Shown here: piece by piece, positions 15-5,168 of the stretch
How positions within the stretch are numbered: the stretch's first letter is position 1
Layout: every line of letters begins with the position of its first letter
Virus record (IMG/VR): IMGVR_UViG_3300018471_000116
DNA from: a virus
Lineage: Duplodnaviria > Heunggongvirae > Uroviricota > Caudoviricetes
Length of the DNA stretch: 5,168 nt
Reading direction: 5' to 3' (one strand)
Notes under the pieces: model-generated
Databases searched by the model: none
What the model was told of the DNA's origin: nothing
The model's input: the letters and a program-made list of their open reading frames with translations, nothing else
Position numbers and translations under genes: made by a program

Positions 15-47
15 CCTAAATACTTACGCCATCTTTACCCTTACAAG

Positions 48-1166
48 TTGTGGAGAAAAAGCACATCTACACGAGATCTGAATGAGGCGAGAAGATTCAG
101 AAACCATCTGTTATTAGAATGGGAGGAACTAAAGCGGAAACATAATCCTGATAACCCCGAAAGGAGGTTACAAAAAGCTATTGAATCCTTACATTCAGAG
201 GCAAGGGCCAATAAAAACACGCAAAGAGCCGTAAAACGCGGTTATGCATCGCCTTCCCTATGCTTAATACGTGACGAATACGCCGAATGCTACAGAGAGC
301 GTCGTTCATACTCAACACTACAGAAATCAGCAAGGGCCGTTGAGCTATTTTTACAAAGCATTCAGAAAGATGATATTCATATTGAGAAAATAGGCAGACG
401 GCTTGTAACAGTATTCTTAGATGACCAGAAGCAACGAGGAGCAGCCGATCAATCTCGTCAAAACTGGCTTACATGCTTAGGATCGCTCTATGAATTTGCT
501 AAACGCCGTTATGACGGAATACCAGACAGTAACCCTTTTCACGGTCATAACCTCGAAGCACGTCGCACAATCGAGAGTTATCAACCGTTTACACCTGAAC
601 AAATGCAAAAGCTACTTGATGCAGCGGAGCCGGAGATCAGAAATATTATTTTAATGGGCTTGTTTTCAGGATGCAGATTAGACGAACTGGCAAGCCTGAA
701 AAAGTCAGAGGTTGTAACTGTGGAAGGAATACGCTGTTTTTATATCAGCAAGAGTAAGACTAAAGCAGGGATCAGACACGTTCCGATACATTCAAGACTA
801 TCGATTATTGTCGATGAATATTTAAATCATAATTATGGTGAATATTTGTTCCCTCACTCGAACAAAGTAAAAAGAATCGACGGCAAGAAAGGCCCGTTCT
901 ATTCTCAAGCATTCTCACGTTTACGTCGTAGCGTCTTGCCAATCGCTACAGATAGACAATGCTTTCACAGCTTGCGCGGGATGTTTATCACTTGTCTTGA
1001 TCGTGCCGGAGTGCCTGAACAGCGGATCGGAGCCATTACCGGACATACAGAGCAGAGAGCTAAAACAGAAGCCTTTCGCACCTACTCACAAGGGGCAAGC
1101 ATTCCAGAATTAGCTGAATATGTAGAATTAGTAAAATATGAATTAAATATTGATTTTAAGGCGTAA
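48..1166 (+). CDS. int: Tyrosine site-specific recombinase (phage-type integrase); start codon uncertain (TTG at 48, frame open back to the adapter junction at 15)
   Basis: 372-aa ORF. Catalytic-domain signature is readable in the translation: R210 in GCRLDEL (nt 675-677), K237/K239 in SKSKTKAG, H307-x-x-R310 in FHSLRG (nt 966-977), H333 in TGHT, and Y346 in AFRTYSQG (nt 1083-1085). Spacing closely parallels lambda Int (R212, K235, H308, R311, H333, Y342). No in-frame ATG occurs before residue 186 and no clear Shine-Dalgarno precedes the TTG, so the annotated start is tentative. Confidence 0.85.
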   Translation: MWRKSTSTRDLNEARRFRNHLLLEWEELKRKHNPDNPERRLQKAIESLHSEARANKNTQRAVKRGYASPSLCLIRDEYAECYRERRSYSTLQKSARAVELFLQSIQKDDIHIEKIGRRLVTVFLDDQKQRGAADQSRQNWLTCLGSLYEFAKRRYDGIPDSNPFHGHNLEARRTIESYQPFTPEQMQKLLDAAEPEIRNIILMGLFSGCRLDELASLKKSEVVTVEGIRCFYISKSKTKAGIRHVPIHSRLSIIVDEYLNHNYGEYLFPHSNKVKRIDGKKGPFYSQAFSRLRRSVLPIATDRQCFHSLRGMFITCLDRAGVPEQRIGAITGHTEQRAKTEAFRTYSQGASIPELAEYVELVKYELNIDFKA

Positions 1167-1196: not shown

Positions 1197-1853
1197 CTAT
1201 TTCACTTCTCCGTCATACGTCGGGAGGGTGTCTTTAGTGGTGCTGGCTGTTCCTGCATTGGTTGGCACTCGGCTTTTTACCTGTCCGCCTGTGCTCTTAG
1301 GTGATGCGGTCTTTACAGCAATAGCGTTAGTAGTTGCATAACTCACTAATCTTATCTGTTCGAACTGCAAATCAAACTGTAAAGCTGATTCTGTTTTATA
1401 TTCGTAGTCAATGCCTGTCAGAATCATATTATCAAACGTCTTATGCTCTGTGCTTACAATAATAGGCTGTCTGGCATTCATTATTTCATCAAGATAAGCA
1501 ATAGCCTGTGAACACCTGTTACCGTTCACCCCTGCACTTGATAGCATATCACCACGTAATGCTAATGGTGTTTCTGTAATAATGCCTGAAAGCATAAGTT
1601 TATTATTCTTGATCCTGACATTATCAGATACATCATTACCATCCTGCACAGGATACGATGTAACATCGGCAGAACGTGAAACCTTAGTTGCCGGAACAGC
1701 GTCAAAAGTAATAGCTTTATAACTGGCTATCGTTGATGCATTTTCGTTATTCAGGTTGCTACATATAATGGCAAATCCGTTATCAGATTTAACCTTGCTG
1801 TTAGATGTATTAATGTTAGATGTGCTGTTGATCTGACTTTCTTTGATAGCCAT
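1197..1853 (-). CDS. Hypothetical protein, 218 aa; candidate virion (distal tail / tail-tip type) protein by position only
   Basis: ATG start at 1853-1851 with an AAGGA Shine-Dalgarno about 12 nt upstream on the minus strand (complement of 1863-1867); TAG stop at 1199-1197. Ser/Thr/Asn-rich N- and C-termini and a central region rich in predicted beta-strand-like residues. Same strand as, and 73 nt downstream of, the 633-aa gene. No recognisable catalytic motif. Confidence 0.6.
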   Translation of the reverse strand: MAIKESQINSTSNINTSNSKVKSDNGFAIICSNLNNENASTIASYKAITFDAVPATKVSRSADVTSYPVQDGNDVSDNVRIKNNKLMLSGIITETPLALRGDMLSSAGVNGNRCSQAIAYLDEIMNARQPIIVSTEHKTFDNMILTGIDYEYKTESALQFDLQFEQIRLVSYATTNAIAVKTASPKSTGGQVKSRVPTNAGTASTTKDTLPTYDGEVK

Positions 1854-1875
1854 TTATATTAATCCTTGTGTAATG

Positions 1876-1904
1876 AGCGGAAAGCAATAAATATTGCCCC
1901 CGCT
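1876..1904 (-). other. Intergenic two-tier stem-loop just upstream of the ribosome-binding site of the 218-aa gene
   Basis: Outer stem AGCGG (1876-1880) / CCGCT (1900-1904); inner stem GCAAT (1884-1888) / ATTGC (1893-1897) with loop AAAT. On the plus strand it is followed by a T-rich run (1905-1920). On the minus strand (the transcribed one here) it is not followed by a U-tract and sits about 9 nt 5' of the SD. Confidence 0.3.
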
Positions 1905-1926
1905 TTATTATTAGTTATCGTTAAAC

Positions 1927-3828
1927 TTAGTTAACGCTACTCTGTCCTGACAACGTGCTAAGAATCAGATTCGAACTAAACTGATTGTTGTTCGCTCTGA
2001 TCTCAGTGCGGATTAAATCCTGAAAGCCGGGACCGTTAGGGATGACGTTAACAGAGATCATATCACTCGGCACCGTAACCTGTGCATTCACGTTAACAGG
2101 AGTTGCGTATTGACGTTGTAGGCTTACAGTCGGCTGATAGGCTTCTGCTTTACGTGCAACAAGGGTTGATCCGTAGCTGTTAGCATTGCCATTAATTAAA
2201 TCAGTCCACCACCCTGGAACGCCGGACTGTGTTTCCTCACCGCGCACAATACGCCCTACATCTTTCGTATCGAGTCCAGTTGCATAACGAATACCTTCAT
2301 TGATAATCGTTGATGGCGACCATTCCCCATCTGTAACAGCGTCCATAACCTTTTGTGTCTCAGGTCTGTTATCATTCTCACCACGGCTAAGATGTTTATT
2401 AATCCAGCTTGTGATTTGATTCCCGTAAGAAGTCATAGAGGTCAGTAATACAGCGCCTTGTTTAGCCAAATCCCCGAACGATGCACCAACACCATAAGCT
2501 GCATTCTGTAAGGCTTTGCTTTCTTCCGGTTTGAGTGCTGGCATGTTGGCTATGCCATCAAAGAAGCCCAAAATAGCCTGATTCGATAGTCCATCTGTCA
2601 GACGGTCAAAGGCTGTAGCTGTCTTGTTAGCTGCGCGATATTGCTCTTTCTGTGCTTCTGTCAGTAGCTGCCCGTTGTTTTCCATATCAACCATCGTTTT
2701 ACGGAACTCTTCCCCATCACGGGAAAACATCTTGAGATAATGGCTGGCATCGTCTGCTAATGGTTCGATCAGGGATATGATGGCTTCTTTAGTCATTCCT
2801 CGGCGTTCACCTTCTCTCACCACGTCTTGCAGGAGTTGCAGCGGTCGCCCCTGGTAGGAAGCTATCTTATCTTTGTTCCATGCAAAGGCATTCTGAATAT
2901 CATTTAATGATCCTTCCCCGCCTCGCCACTCTTTTTTCTTACTATCCCATTCAGCAGTTCGGCTTTGATGACCAATGCGTTCGTTTAAGTCTTTGATATT
3001 GTCAGTGGTCTTGTCCACGCTTGCACTTGATACACCGTTTGCCCTCCCCCAATTAACCATTGCAGCCACCTGGTTGGAGTCTGCGCCTACCAGATCGCTC
3101 ATCTTCTGCAATTCCATACGTTCACGGGCTTTTTCCATTCCAGCAGATACAGCCATACTTCCTAAGCCAACGGCAGCGCCGCCGATAATGCCACCAACAC
3201 CGCCCATCATTAACGCGCCACCGCCGCTAACACCTTCTTTGTGGAGCTTCTTAGAAGTAACTGGATATACACCCCCAGCGGCAGCATTACGACGCGTAGC
3301 AGCGGCTGCGGCTCGTCTTTCTAATGTGATGCGGTCACGGATCAGGGCATTCATCTTCGCTTGCGATATAGCGCCGGATTCATAGAGGCGGGTTTGTTCC
3401 TTAATGTAACGTAGAGCATCGTGATATTTCTTAATATCCATCCCTTCGCCATAGCGGGAATTGTTCTTGATGCCTTGTAACTGGCGATATGATGCAAGGC
3501 GCTTGATCTCTGCCTTTTCAGCAATTGAGGCTTGTTTAGCCTGTGCTTTAGCGAGGTTTTTAGCTTCCTGTAGCTTCTGTTTAGTGCTGGCTTTAGATGC
3601 CTGTGTCTCAGATTTAACAGCCCGCTTAACATGCTGATCATGCTGGCGCTGAATCTCTTTTCCCAGCCTCTGTAAATCTTTCTGACGTGCTGCCGCCACT
3701 TGCACAGGTTTGATCCCCTGCATCTTCTTTTGTAGCTTATCCACTTCATTCTTAGCTTTCTGTAAGCTCTTGAAATCAGTGGTAAATGTCACAACATTAC
3801 TAATTCGTGAGGCGGTAATTTCTAACAT
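1927..3828 (-). CDS. Large phage structural-type protein, 633 aa: coiled-coil N-terminal region plus Gly/Ala-rich hydrophobic segment; tape-measure-like (alternatively pilot/ejection-type) protein
   Basis: ATG at 3828-3826 with AGGGAAAC about 10 nt upstream on the minus strand; TAA stop at 1929-1927. Residues about 20-170 are K/Q/A/E-rich with heptad-like character (e.g. KLQEAKNLAKAQAKQASIAEKAEIKR). Residues 171-186 are poly-Ala/Arg. Residues about 200-231 (GGGALMMGGVGGIIGGAAVGLGSMAVSAGM, nt about 3136-3231) form a Gly-rich hydrophobic stretch typical of tape-measure and pilot proteins. The C-terminal about 390 aa looks globular. Product call is by architecture, not homology. Confidence 0.75.
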   Translation of the reverse strand: MLEITASRISNVVTFTTDFKSLQKAKNEVDKLQKKMQGIKPVQVAAARQKDLQRLGKEIQRQHDQHVKRAVKSETQASKASTKQKLQEAKNLAKAQAKQASIAEKAEIKRLASYRQLQGIKNNSRYGEGMDIKKYHDALRYIKEQTRLYESGAISQAKMNALIRDRITLERRAAAAATRRNAAAGGVYPVTSKKLHKEGVSGGGALMMGGVGGIIGGAAVGLGSMAVSAGMEKARERMELQKMSDLVGADSNQVAAMVNWGRANGVSSASVDKTTDNIKDLNERIGHQSRTAEWDSKKKEWRGGEGSLNDIQNAFAWNKDKIASYQGRPLQLLQDVVREGERRGMTKEAIISLIEPLADDASHYLKMFSRDGEEFRKTMVDMENNGQLLTEAQKEQYRAANKTATAFDRLTDGLSNQAILGFFDGIANMPALKPEESKALQNAAYGVGASFGDLAKQGAVLLTSMTSYGNQITSWINKHLSRGENDNRPETQKVMDAVTDGEWSPSTIINEGIRYATGLDTKDVGRIVRGEETQSGVPGWWTDLINGNANSYGSTLVARKAEAYQPTVSLQRQYATPVNVNAQVTVPSDMISVNVIPNGPGFQDLIRTEIRANNNQFSSNLILSTLSGQSSVN

Positions 3829-3852: not shown

Positions 3853-3872
3853 TTATTGTTTGTTATTGTTTT
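3853..3872. repeat. Short AT-rich tandem direct repeat (TTATTGTTTG / TTATTGTTTT), with a third ATTGTTT copy at 3833-3839
   Basis: Read directly: 3853-3862 TTATTGTTTG and 3863-3872 TTATTGTTTT (9/10 identical). Spans the stop codon of the 65-aa ORF and the 5' leader of the 633-aa gene. Low complexity, so may be incidental. Confidence 0.3.
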
Positions 3873-4060
3873 TTAGAGCAATAATATTGGATTGCCTCAA
3901 AAGTGCTGCACCCAGTCTGAAACACACGCTGCCGCACATTATTTGCATCAATTGAAAGCATTCTGCATAAGGCACTGACATTGATTATTGAGTCATCGCT
4001 AATAGCTGCCAGTTCTTTTACAGACTTAAGAATTAATGCCTGTGAATTTTCTGTGTTCAT
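3863..4060 (-). CDS. Small hypothetical protein, 65 aa (possible small operon-leading protein; function unknown)
   Basis: ATG at 4060-4058, TAA stop at 3865-3863, same strand as flanking genes and exactly fills the gap upstream of the 633-aa gene (34-nt spacer). Weak purine-rich SD (GAGAGAAAACCA-ATG). No signal-peptide-like or strongly hydrophobic segment. Short length and weak RBS keep confidence low. Confidence 0.4.
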   Translation of the reverse strand: MNTENSQALILKSVKELAAISDDSIINVSALCRMLSIDANNVRQRVFQTGCSTFEAIQYYCSKKQ

Positions 4061-4211
4061 TGGTTTTCTCTCACATATATATTTTTATTTGGGTTTGTAG
4101 ACAGTAGAAAAACAAAAAGGGCAAAGAGATTCGTTACTGTATTTGCGCCTACAGGTTAGTTAATCCCTTTACCCTTATTGCCCCGATGGGGAATCGTCTA
4201 TTAACGCTTTA

Positions 4212-5136
4212 TTACGCAGCAGATCCGAAGATGATAGCTTGCGGAATGTTGTTTACTGGCAGATAAGATGTCTCAGTAACCACAGATGGGAATTGGAATT
4301 CATCCTTGATTAGATATTGGTGATGCAACACGGCATCTTGACCTAACTCAGCATGACGCACACCAACGCCGCTATGAAGCTGGTAACACTGTGCCGCTTT
4401 ATCCATTACCGGAACAATTGCGAAACCGTTCTCTCCGATGTGAGCAACAATCTCAGGAAACATTGACACATCAATAACAGTGATCCCACCAATCTGGAAA
4501 GAGTCATAGGCTGGGTTAGAATCAACCATACGGGTAAACAGGGCCGTAGCACTCGCATCGCCTGCATATTTCACCATGTCACTGATCAGCGGGTTAGATG
4601 ACAAACCATCAGCAGCAGTGCCAGCAGCAAAGATAATTACACCAGTTCGCTTTGCAGCAAGACCAGACCCCAGCTTTTCACTCTGTAAGCGCACCGCTTT
4701 ACGAATAGCAAGGAACGGGTTAACAGTAGTCGATGCAAAGTCGATAGCGGGTACCGTGGTTTTAGCCTGACCGTCGAGGAAGTCGAGATCACCTTGTCCG
4801 GCATATTCAGATTCAACTTTCAGGCCCAGCAGCGCGGTAATCAGATCCACTTCAACACGGTTTGCGTGTGAACGGTAATGAGCCTCAGAGAAATCATTAA
4901 CCGCTACCAGCATAGCATCAGAACGGTTTGGATATTGGCGGCTGTATTGTTCCAGGTCACGAGAAGTAACAGCGTTAATACTGCCGACGTGTTTCATCTG
5001 GAAAAGTTTGTTTGACCATTCCTGACGTTTAGAGGCGTTCCAGTCGCTTTGAGCGTAAGGCGAGGTTTCCCCAGCTACCTGCACAAACTGATCAATCAGG
5101 TCGGTAAGAAGAATGCTGTTTTCTGTATGATATTGC
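4212..5136 (-). CDS. Phage structural-type protein, 5'-truncated at the adapter junction (at least 308 real residues); major capsid or major tail/sheath candidate
   Basis: Uninterrupted minus-strand ORF from the contig edge to the TAA stop at 4214-4212. The first six residues of the six-frame translation (MCSSDL, 5153-5136) are encoded by adapter sequence, so the true N-terminus and start codon are missing. Composition is Ala/Gly/Ser/Thr/Val-rich with no P-loop or catalytic motif, consistent with a virion structural protein. Identity not resolvable without a homology or structure search. Confidence 0.7.
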
Positions 5137-5168
5137 AGATCGGAAGAGCACACGTCTGAACTCCAGTC
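5137..5168. other. Sequencing adapter (Illumina TruSeq indexed adapter / read-1 read-through sequence); not biological sequence
   Basis: Positions 5137-5168 read AGATCGGAAGAGCACACGTCTGAACTCCAGTC, the first 32 nt of the standard TruSeq adapter AGATCGGAAGAGCACACGTCTGAACTCCAGTCA. Confidence 0.95.

Follow-up and report, generated by a model that had tools for sequence, protein, structure and literature searches.

What is a phage tape measure gene doing beside an integrase, with a single small gene between the two? The question is raised by the contig of IMG/VR virus record IMGVR_UViG_3300018471_000116, which is short and was analysed over its entire length of 5,168 nt (referred to here as the window). 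An earlier note, made from the sequence alone, had observed that the gene for a tape-measure-like protein of 633 amino acids (aa) is followed by one 218-aa gene and then directly by the integrase, with no host-recognition genes. It offered two explanations, either that the element is reduced or of a satellite type and takes parts from a helper, or that the proteins are not tail proteins at all, and named structure prediction and a comparison of gene order with relatives as ways to decide. We find that the window is the integrase-proximal third of a 13–14-kb integrative element of Enterobacteriaceae, present in Escherichia coli, and that its 633-aa and 218-aa proteins are homologues of tail proteins of large virulent myoviruses. 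The element probably belongs to a family of phage satellites that parasitise these large lytic phages. Of the two explanations the first is therefore favoured, by the compactness of the element, its own maintenance genes and its few virion genes, while the second is unsupported.

Virion genes of the window

The 633-aa protein (1927–3828, minus strand) is, judged by sequence homology, an orthologue of the tape measure protein of Phapecoctavirus, which are 148-kb lytic myoviruses of the Stephanstirmvirinae. It matches PHROG 16051 (E = 3.6e-72) and aligns with gp104 of phage phAPEC8 at 32% identity over 450 aa (BLASTP, E = 1e-62), the homology extending along the protein and including both termini. 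Identity to the phage tape measure is 53% in residues 1–40 and 43% both in residues 251–380 and in the last 73 residues (561–633), as against 8–24% elsewhere, so that both termini and a central block stand out as conserved. Relatives in the phage collection are the tape measures of large myoviruses (approximately 145–155 kb where a length is listed), most of them Phapecoctavirus. The element-type protein is consistently some 45 residues shorter than that of the presumed helper: all 47 of 47 homologues, which share approximately 33% identity, measure 613–635 aa and the window copy 633 aa, compared with 662 aa in phAPEC8. Residues 200–230 form a Gly-rich hydrophobic segment. The gene does not stand where tape measure genes canonically do, after the tail tube and chaperone genes and before the hub genes, but comes after the capsid gene and a gene for a 65-aa protein. 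Present in every case, it is the invariable 'tail' gene of the family (90%-identity clusters, 847 sequences).

The 218-aa gene (1197–1853, minus strand) encodes a tail-tube-initiator or Dit-like protein, as indicated by both its profile match and its fold. The match to PF21821 Dit_like (E = 5e-28) scores 98 bits against a cut-off of 24, and the AlphaFold model, although of moderate confidence (mean predicted local distance difference test score, pLDDT, 65), matches tube-fold baseplate chains of PhiTE (Foldseek E = 1e-12), Pam3, XM1, Bas63, pyocin R2 and Mu, with lambda tip proteins also among the hits. A phage counterpart is phAPEC8 gp103, encoded directly after the tape measure (63% identity, E = 1e-89), to which the homologue in the related locus L007 is 71% identical; gp103 is mis-annotated as a tail fibre, and one phage record names a homologue as tube initiator. 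The gp104–gp103 pair thus has homologues in the same order in the element, and in both settings a terminator follows the pair. In the phage, however, the pair has the tail chaperone genes on one side and, on the other, hub, baseplate and fibre genes extending over about 20 kb, whereas in the element the integrase comes next. The suggestion in the earlier note that these might be pilot proteins of some other virion type does not fit a 633-aa protein that aligns with the phAPEC8 tape measure, nor a 218-aa protein that is 63% identical to the product of the next gene and is modelled with a tube fold. Its comparison with lambda-like prophages was likewise off target, the relatives being large virulent myoviruses and not temperate phages. 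The tube initiator is optional, being absent in five of the nine related loci with a visible downstream side (90%-identity clusters, 341 sequences). At its position in locus L006 (10496–11167) lies an EAL-domain gene of the cyclic-di-GMP phosphodiesterase type on the opposite strand.

Upstream of these genes the window encodes a major capsid protein (4212–5135, minus strand, cut by the contig end) of the lambda gpE family, which we assign to the HK97 fold from the profile match of its relatives and from its modelled structure. Relatives at 42–49% identity carry PF03864 Phage_cap_E; the window protein itself falls below Pfam detection, and its match to PHROG 29 is weak. The AlphaFold model (mean pLDDT 70, moderate; predicted template modelling score 0.71) matches the PhiTE capsid protein (E = 2e-14) and then those of ICP1, Bas63, Sf14 and lambda. 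PhiTE and Bas63 are among the first matches of both the capsid and the tube-initiator models. The 90%-identity clusters of the capsid protein comprise 494 sequences. Between the capsid and tape measure genes lies a gene for a conserved 65-aa protein (3863–4060, minus strand), whose homologues keep this position in L006, L007, L008, L019, L021 and 13 further loci; it has no family or structure match, and does not resemble the small gene that precedes the tape measure gene in the phage.

On the other strand, and convergent with these genes, is the tyrosine integrase (15–1166, plus strand; Pfam Phage_integrase E = 1.2e-12, PHROG 1 E = 6e-37), its N-terminus cut by the contig end. It is separated from the 218-aa gene by a bidirectional hairpin resembling an intrinsic terminator (1175–1192, both strands), a pattern match from a consensus scan with a 6-bp G+C-rich stem and a T-run on either strand. 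Open reading frames (ORFs) and hairpin scan together bear out the layout described in the earlier note, and between the 633-aa gene and the integrase there is, besides the 218-aa gene, no ORF of at least 60 aa with a family match.

Both ends of the contig are Illumina TruSeq adapter from untrimmed reads, and neither is biological or has a strand. Positions 1–14 read cgctcttccgatct, and alignment to the E. coli chromosome begins only at base 14; positions 5136–5168 read agatcggaagagcacacgtctgaactccagtc and match the ends of unrelated phage records. A megablast search of the window against the phage collection returned adapter matches only. The integrase ORF is listed as 48–1166 (plus strand), the frame actually being open from base 15, and the capsid ORF as 313 aa at 4212–5153 (minus strand). 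The TTG start at 48 and the residues 'MCSSDL' at 5153 are artefactual beginnings of these two end genes. The contig ends remove 23 aa of the integrase and 36 aa of the capsid protein, which in complete genomes measure 406 aa (19932–21152 in locus L001, introduced below) and 343 aa respectively. Alignment of the window with the reference genome has one gap opening, apparently a 15-nt insertion or deletion that explains the difference in length; subtraction of gene coordinates places it between the capsid and 65-aa genes (window 4061–4211, L001 24047–24212).

The complete element and its family

The insert of the window is 99% identical to E. coli chromosomes, and 397 of 5,426 complete E. coli genomes match it, 48 of them over at least 80% of its length. 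In strain Combat11I9 (locus L001) the complete element spans 13,179 bp between two copies of TGGAGCGGGCGAAGGGAATCGA, attachment (att) repeats of 22–23 bp that are both intact and one of which is the 3′ end of the tRNA-Gly gene glyU. The right flank (actS–glyU) is constant, while three different left flanks, another island, the ETT2 secretion cluster and yqeG, are found directly beyond the integrase, and together these fix the boundaries of the element. In L001 the integrase end is abutted by a second island with its own integrase (3543–19660), whose contents include two clusters for arsenic resistance and, by RefSeq annotation, an 'ABC-three component system'. A search of plasmids gave three hits only, one of them a record of chromosome size; another (H58, NZ_CP126938.1 29493–36046) is a 166-kb plasmid, typed from summary counts as conjugative or non-mobilisable, that carries 77% of the window together with IS3 transposases.

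Besides the integrase and the four other genes of the window, the L001 element has, upstream of the capsid gene, genes for proteins of 127 aa and of 65–79 aa. It further contains several small genes and genes for a winged-helix protein of 208 aa that resembles replication initiators, for a serine invertase and for a YecR-like lipoprotein. It also has two long non-coding stretches, of approximately 0.9 and 1.5 kb. Within the longer one, three tandem 22-bp iterons (CCCCCTAGCTCACAGTGACCTA-like; L001 30155–30235) lie beside an AT-rich stretch, and this region is probably the replication origin of the element, whose replication function we infer from homology. The maintenance kit consists of a tRNA-specific integrase together with a small recombinase, and of an iteron origin with a replication initiator. 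The virion genes stand in one unidirectional operon, which encodes a small protein, the 127-aa protein, the capsid protein, the 65-aa protein, the tape measure and, in some members, the tube initiator.

Searches with Pfam and PHROGs found no gene for a portal, terminase or protease, nor one for a tube, sheath, baseplate or fibre, anywhere in the 13.2-kb element, and the called genes of six relatives likewise include no other virion genes. The virion genes are limited to the capsid protein, a small decoration-like protein, the tape measure and the tube initiator. The observation that host-recognition genes are missing therefore holds for the whole element between its att repeats, and, as complete genomes show the same compact element, the unusual arrangement is not a conventional tail module split by a contig break. 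With an incomplete set of virion and packaging genes, carried by a discrete mobile element that has integration and putative replication functions of its own, the element has features expected of a phage satellite. The description of the 127-aa protein as decoration-like is a tentative one, suggested by its size and position: comparison with the phAPEC8 head decoration protein was negative by BLASTP and hhalign, and the best sequence match to a solved structure is the Bas63 head decoration protein (E = 0.54).

A non-coding region of 0.55–0.95 kb is conserved in position upstream of the capsid operon (L001 25887–26828, and in L006, L007, L008 and L019); no Rfam family matches it, and no helper promoter motif can be recognised in it. 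An Rfam E-value scan of the whole element recovered the flanking tRNA only and nothing in the two long non-coding stretches, and among ten accessory and small proteins scanned against NCBIfam no curated family other than recombinases was found. The repeated hairpin motif of phAPEC8, annotated as a phage promoter, does not occur in the elements in convincing form.

To the extent of our census, which sampled the family and was not exhaustive, the same gene order recurs in many Enterobacteriaceae. A gene of about 125 aa, the capsid gene, a gene of about 65 aa and a tape measure gene of about 618 aa are followed by a tube initiator or by nothing, and then by a convergent integrase, in E. coli and in species representatives of Kluyvera, Buttiauxella, Citrobacter, Scandinavium, Phytobacter, Pseudenterobacter and Enterobacter; relatives were also found in Klebsiella, Enterobacter, Citrobacter, Cronobacter and others. 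E. coli itself holds a second variant at glyU, of 14,263 bp, and a third. One family element is integrated at tRNA-Thr, and another member, of approximately 13.1 kb, is bounded by repeats of yet another tRNA. A Logan contig (SRR16178778, 14,281 bp; L021) assembles as a circle, with a length of 14,251 bp after an end overlap of 30 nt (k − 1), and could represent an episomal or packaged form. L021 has no large integrase; a tyrosine recombinase of 189 aa is encoded instead of one, alongside an HNH/endonuclease VII-like gene and a helicase-like replication gene of 492 aa.

The family is a mosaic. Loci L008 and L001 have integrases that are 98% identical and tape measures that are 29% identical; in L019 the tape measure is of the window type (91%) but the capsid protein belongs to another lineage; and L021 combines the capsid protein of L008 (98%) with a different tape measure. 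For the second capsid lineage (L019 8576–9604, also in L031, L036, L040 and L041) BLASTP gave no hit to the window type; identity to the capsid protein of phAPEC8 is 25%, and a PF03864 hit is on record. The pairing of this lineage with a window-type tape measure indicates that capsid and tail modules reassort independently. Between L001 and L019 the ratio of non-synonymous to synonymous substitution rates (dN/dS) comes to 0.17 in the tape measure gene, at a dS of 0.34, and to 0.16 in both the tube-initiator gene (dS 0.62) and the 65-aa gene, and values of 0.16–0.17 at dS of 0.3–0.6 mark these as working genes.

A non-coding stretch shared with Phapecoctavirus termini

Of the links to Phapecoctavirus the strongest is found beyond the window. 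Just after the invertase gene, approximately 6.2 kb past the right end of the window in the element, an 81-nt non-coding stretch (L001 31302–31382) is 79–81% identical to a sequence that occurs, among 50,697 phage records, in 65 Phapecoctavirus records only. Phages Schickermooser, Mt1B1_P17 and WPEC4 have direct terminal repeats of 328–329 bp, and the inner boundary of the repeat falls inside the 81-nt stretch, at CGTT|AAGC. These termini were taken from deposited records and from one paper, in which a 328-bp terminal repeat is reported for Schickermooser (PMC6563267). The 81-nt motif is a candidate mimic of the packaging or cleavage site of the phage, which from the sequence match is a strong lead for the sub-group of elements that carries it and not for the family as a whole, and the cut in the element is predicted at L001 31353|31354 (CGTT|AAGC).

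Of the 5,426 E. coli genomes, 219 have the full motif, in every case next to the invertase gene. In about 80 further E. coli genomes, which carry a variant without the invertase, similarity to the motif starts exactly at the position equivalent to the phage end, and this suggests a breakpoint of the kind that a recombinogenic DNA end at the site would leave behind. Examples are L047 9001 (NZ_CP090456.1) and L010 3556, with the junction …GCAACCTC|AAGCGATG. That the breakpoint (motif position 64) is the end of an insertion sequence (IS) was ruled out, as approximately 160 nt of other DNA lie between it and IS2 and a copy without an IS has the same junction. The motif was also considered as the crossover site of the invertase, and no inverted copy was found with which it would delimit an invertible segment.

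Some of the small accessory genes also resemble genes of these and other phages (L006 760–978, L007 1547–1756, L008 8313–8525, L001 28842–29012), with 34–44% identity to phAPEC8 gp142 and gp032, and another resembles a 60-aa gene of the Justusliebigvirus phage inny and is also similar to phage muut.

A probable satellite of virulent myoviruses, and the alternatives

Observed here are the gene content and boundaries of the element, its homologies, its conservation as a family, the purifying selection on its genes and the non-coding terminus motif that it shares with phages; from these we infer mobilisation, induction, packaging, particle formation, dependence on a helper and a reason for the tape measure, along the following lines. 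The cell would be infected by a large, virulent Stephanstirmvirinae-type myovirus, which in the case of this E. coli variant would be Phapecoctavirus, whereupon the element would excise and replicate. Small shells made of its own capsid protein would form on the helper portal and, in the sub-group that includes L001, the closest complete relative of the window, would be filled by the helper terminase by way of the mimic of the terminal-repeat boundary. The heads would then join tails made by the helper, in which the tape measure of the element, with or without its tube initiator, would replace that of the helper, a plug-in role that the helper-like docking ends at the N- and C-termini of the protein would fit. 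The benefit of a tape measure of its own could be self-supply if late genes of the helper are repressed, escape from exclusion directed at the ejection apparatus of the helper, or sabotage of helper tails. We put forward tentatively, as a possibility that is open to doubt, the more specific view that these are satellites of virulent Stephanstirmvirinae myoviruses that re-specify both ends of the virion, with a shell of their own but no portal, their own tape measure and packaging through a terminal-repeat mimic, and in which the tape measure may bypass exclusion aimed at the helper or sabotage its tails. On that same tentative view the part of the particle that is first to enter the envelope of the recipient would be satellite-encoded, since the element always supplies its own tape measure.

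Several observations weigh against the satellite reading or its details. Some copies are interrupted by insertion sequences, the E. coli hits H46, H47, H50 and H56 being split by IS3, IS2 or IS1. The capsid protein is only about 23% identical to that of the presumed helper (phAPEC8) and, as the element has no portal or scaffold gene, its assembly on a foreign portal is conjectural. The 81-nt motif is absent from L006, L007 and L019–L021 and sits in a serine-invertase cassette that only part of the E. coli elements possess, and it may be a component of that cassette and not of the family core. For the L008 variant no closer helper was found in the phage collection, in which the identity of its tube initiator to any phage does not exceed 51%. 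Lastly, we know of no satellite that carries a tape measure gene, and the advantage of having one is for that reason speculative.

Of the other explanations the foremost is that the element is a decoy island whose divergent copies of capsid, tape measure and tube initiator poison the assembly of Stephanstirmvirinae phages, its own transfer being secondary or absent. Its structural genes are indeed homologues of helper parts with conserved docking ends, and they are variable and reshuffled between near-identical backbones, as in an arms race (L008 versus L001); known satellites such as Staphylococcus aureus pathogenicity islands (SaPIs), P4 and PLE (an element that resembles phage-inducible chromosomal islands) also commonly interfere with their helpers. 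Pure defence, however, needs neither an integrase with att sites, nor an origin with an initiator, nor a tight size of 13–14 kb, nor a terminus mimic, and no PADLOC model was found in the ten accessory and small proteins scanned, a scan that did not extend to the structural proteins. We therefore regard pure interference as unlikely and, interference and transfer being compatible, more as a complement to the satellite reading than as its rival. It could also be that the helper is an unsampled and possibly temperate relative and not Phapecoctavirus, the 81-nt stretch then being a regulatory or recombination site of the invertase cassette. The confinement of the motif to invertase-bearing elements, the weak similarity of the capsid protein to that of phAPEC8 and the L008-type tube initiator without a close phage match would all be accommodated. 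We nevertheless consider this distinctly unlikely, given that among the 50,697 phage records the motif is found only in Phapecoctavirus, where it straddles the terminal-repeat boundary, that the tube initiator is 63–71% identical to Phapecoctavirus gp103, and that no inverted repeat of the motif was found.

Decay of a temperate myovirus prophage, with the capsid and tape measure genes as its remnants, would explain the integrase and the integration at a tRNA gene, the placement of the region in predicted prophage stretches by IMG/VR and the insertion sequences in some copies. It is very unlikely in view of the same compact order and size in at least eight genera, of purifying selection and intact ORFs in hundreds of genomes, and of att repeats that are both intact and a member that assembles as a circle; moreover, the phage matches of the tape measure and tube initiator, where a length is listed, have genomes of approximately 130–155 kb, and every genus named among them is a virulent myovirus lineage. 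Scarcely credible, finally, is an autonomous small virus without a tail in which the 633-aa protein would serve as an ejection or pilot protein. The Gly-rich hydrophobic segment and the lack of tail tube, sheath and fibre genes would suit such a virus, but HK97-fold capsids need a portal and a terminase, of which the element has neither, and the 633-aa protein is orthologous from end to end to a myovirus tape measure and is often followed by a tube initiator.

If it is a satellite, the element would work most like PLE, with respect to its virulent myovirus helper, and like the capsid-forming phage-inducible chromosomal islands (cfPICIs), with respect to its own capsid, while its size, tRNA integration and apparent terminus mimicry recall P4. 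PLE lacks genes for a capsid protein, for a tape measure and for a tube initiator. It shares with the element an integrative island of similar size class, a helper (presumed in the case of the element) that is a virulent myovirus, and genes that nearly all share a strand, the integrase lying at one end. The coat protein of ICP1, the helper of PLE, is moreover a structural neighbour of the element's capsid protein, whose model has it (8g1r) among the best matches. PLE differs in occurring in another host family, and no sequence similarity between it and the element was found. PLE is reported to remodel the ICP1 coat protein with an external scaffold, TcaP (PMC10945586). The cfPICIs resemble the element in having their own capsid shell, in using helper tails (which for the element is a supposition), in their occurrence in Enterobacteriaceae and in their size of 13–15 kb. 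They carry a full head module of small terminase, portal, protease, capsid protein and head–tail connectors, and no tail genes, whereas the element has only the capsid protein and a small decoration-like protein, plus a tape measure; none of the other head-module genes (small terminase, portal, protease, head–tail connectors) was detected in any ORF of the element with Pfam or PHROGs.

P4-like satellites have in common with the element integration at a tRNA gene, a size of 11–14 kb, a circular form (seen in one member of the present family) and a small capsid-associated accessory protein, and the element's putative copy of the helper terminus is comparable to the P2-type cos site of P4. P4 uses the capsid protein of P2 together with Sid and Psu, has a large primase, no capsid or tape measure gene, and a temperate helper. 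No Pfam or PHROGs match to Psu, Sid, Delta or the Alpha primase was found among the proteins of the element. Nor does it resemble a classical phage-inducible chromosomal island or SaPI, as there is no AlpA match in its small ORFs, the initiator is a 208-aa winged-helix protein and a capsid gene is present. No description of the element was found in the literature searched, and papers outside that literature are possible.

If the satellite reading is true, then among the satellite families of Enterobacteriaceae this one would be the first that is linked to virulent phages and not to temperate ones, and it would be, to our knowledge, the first satellite of any kind with a tape measure gene. It makes testable how small a capsid module a satellite can make do with, whether nucleation of a capsid protein on a foreign portal is possible, and what a tape measure adds besides tail length. 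The presumed helpers, phAPEC8-like and phi92-like phages, are popular candidates for therapy, and Stephanstirmvirinae myoviruses are widely used in therapy cocktails. The element could then affect the outcome of phage therapy, through interference, as well as gene flow during treatment.

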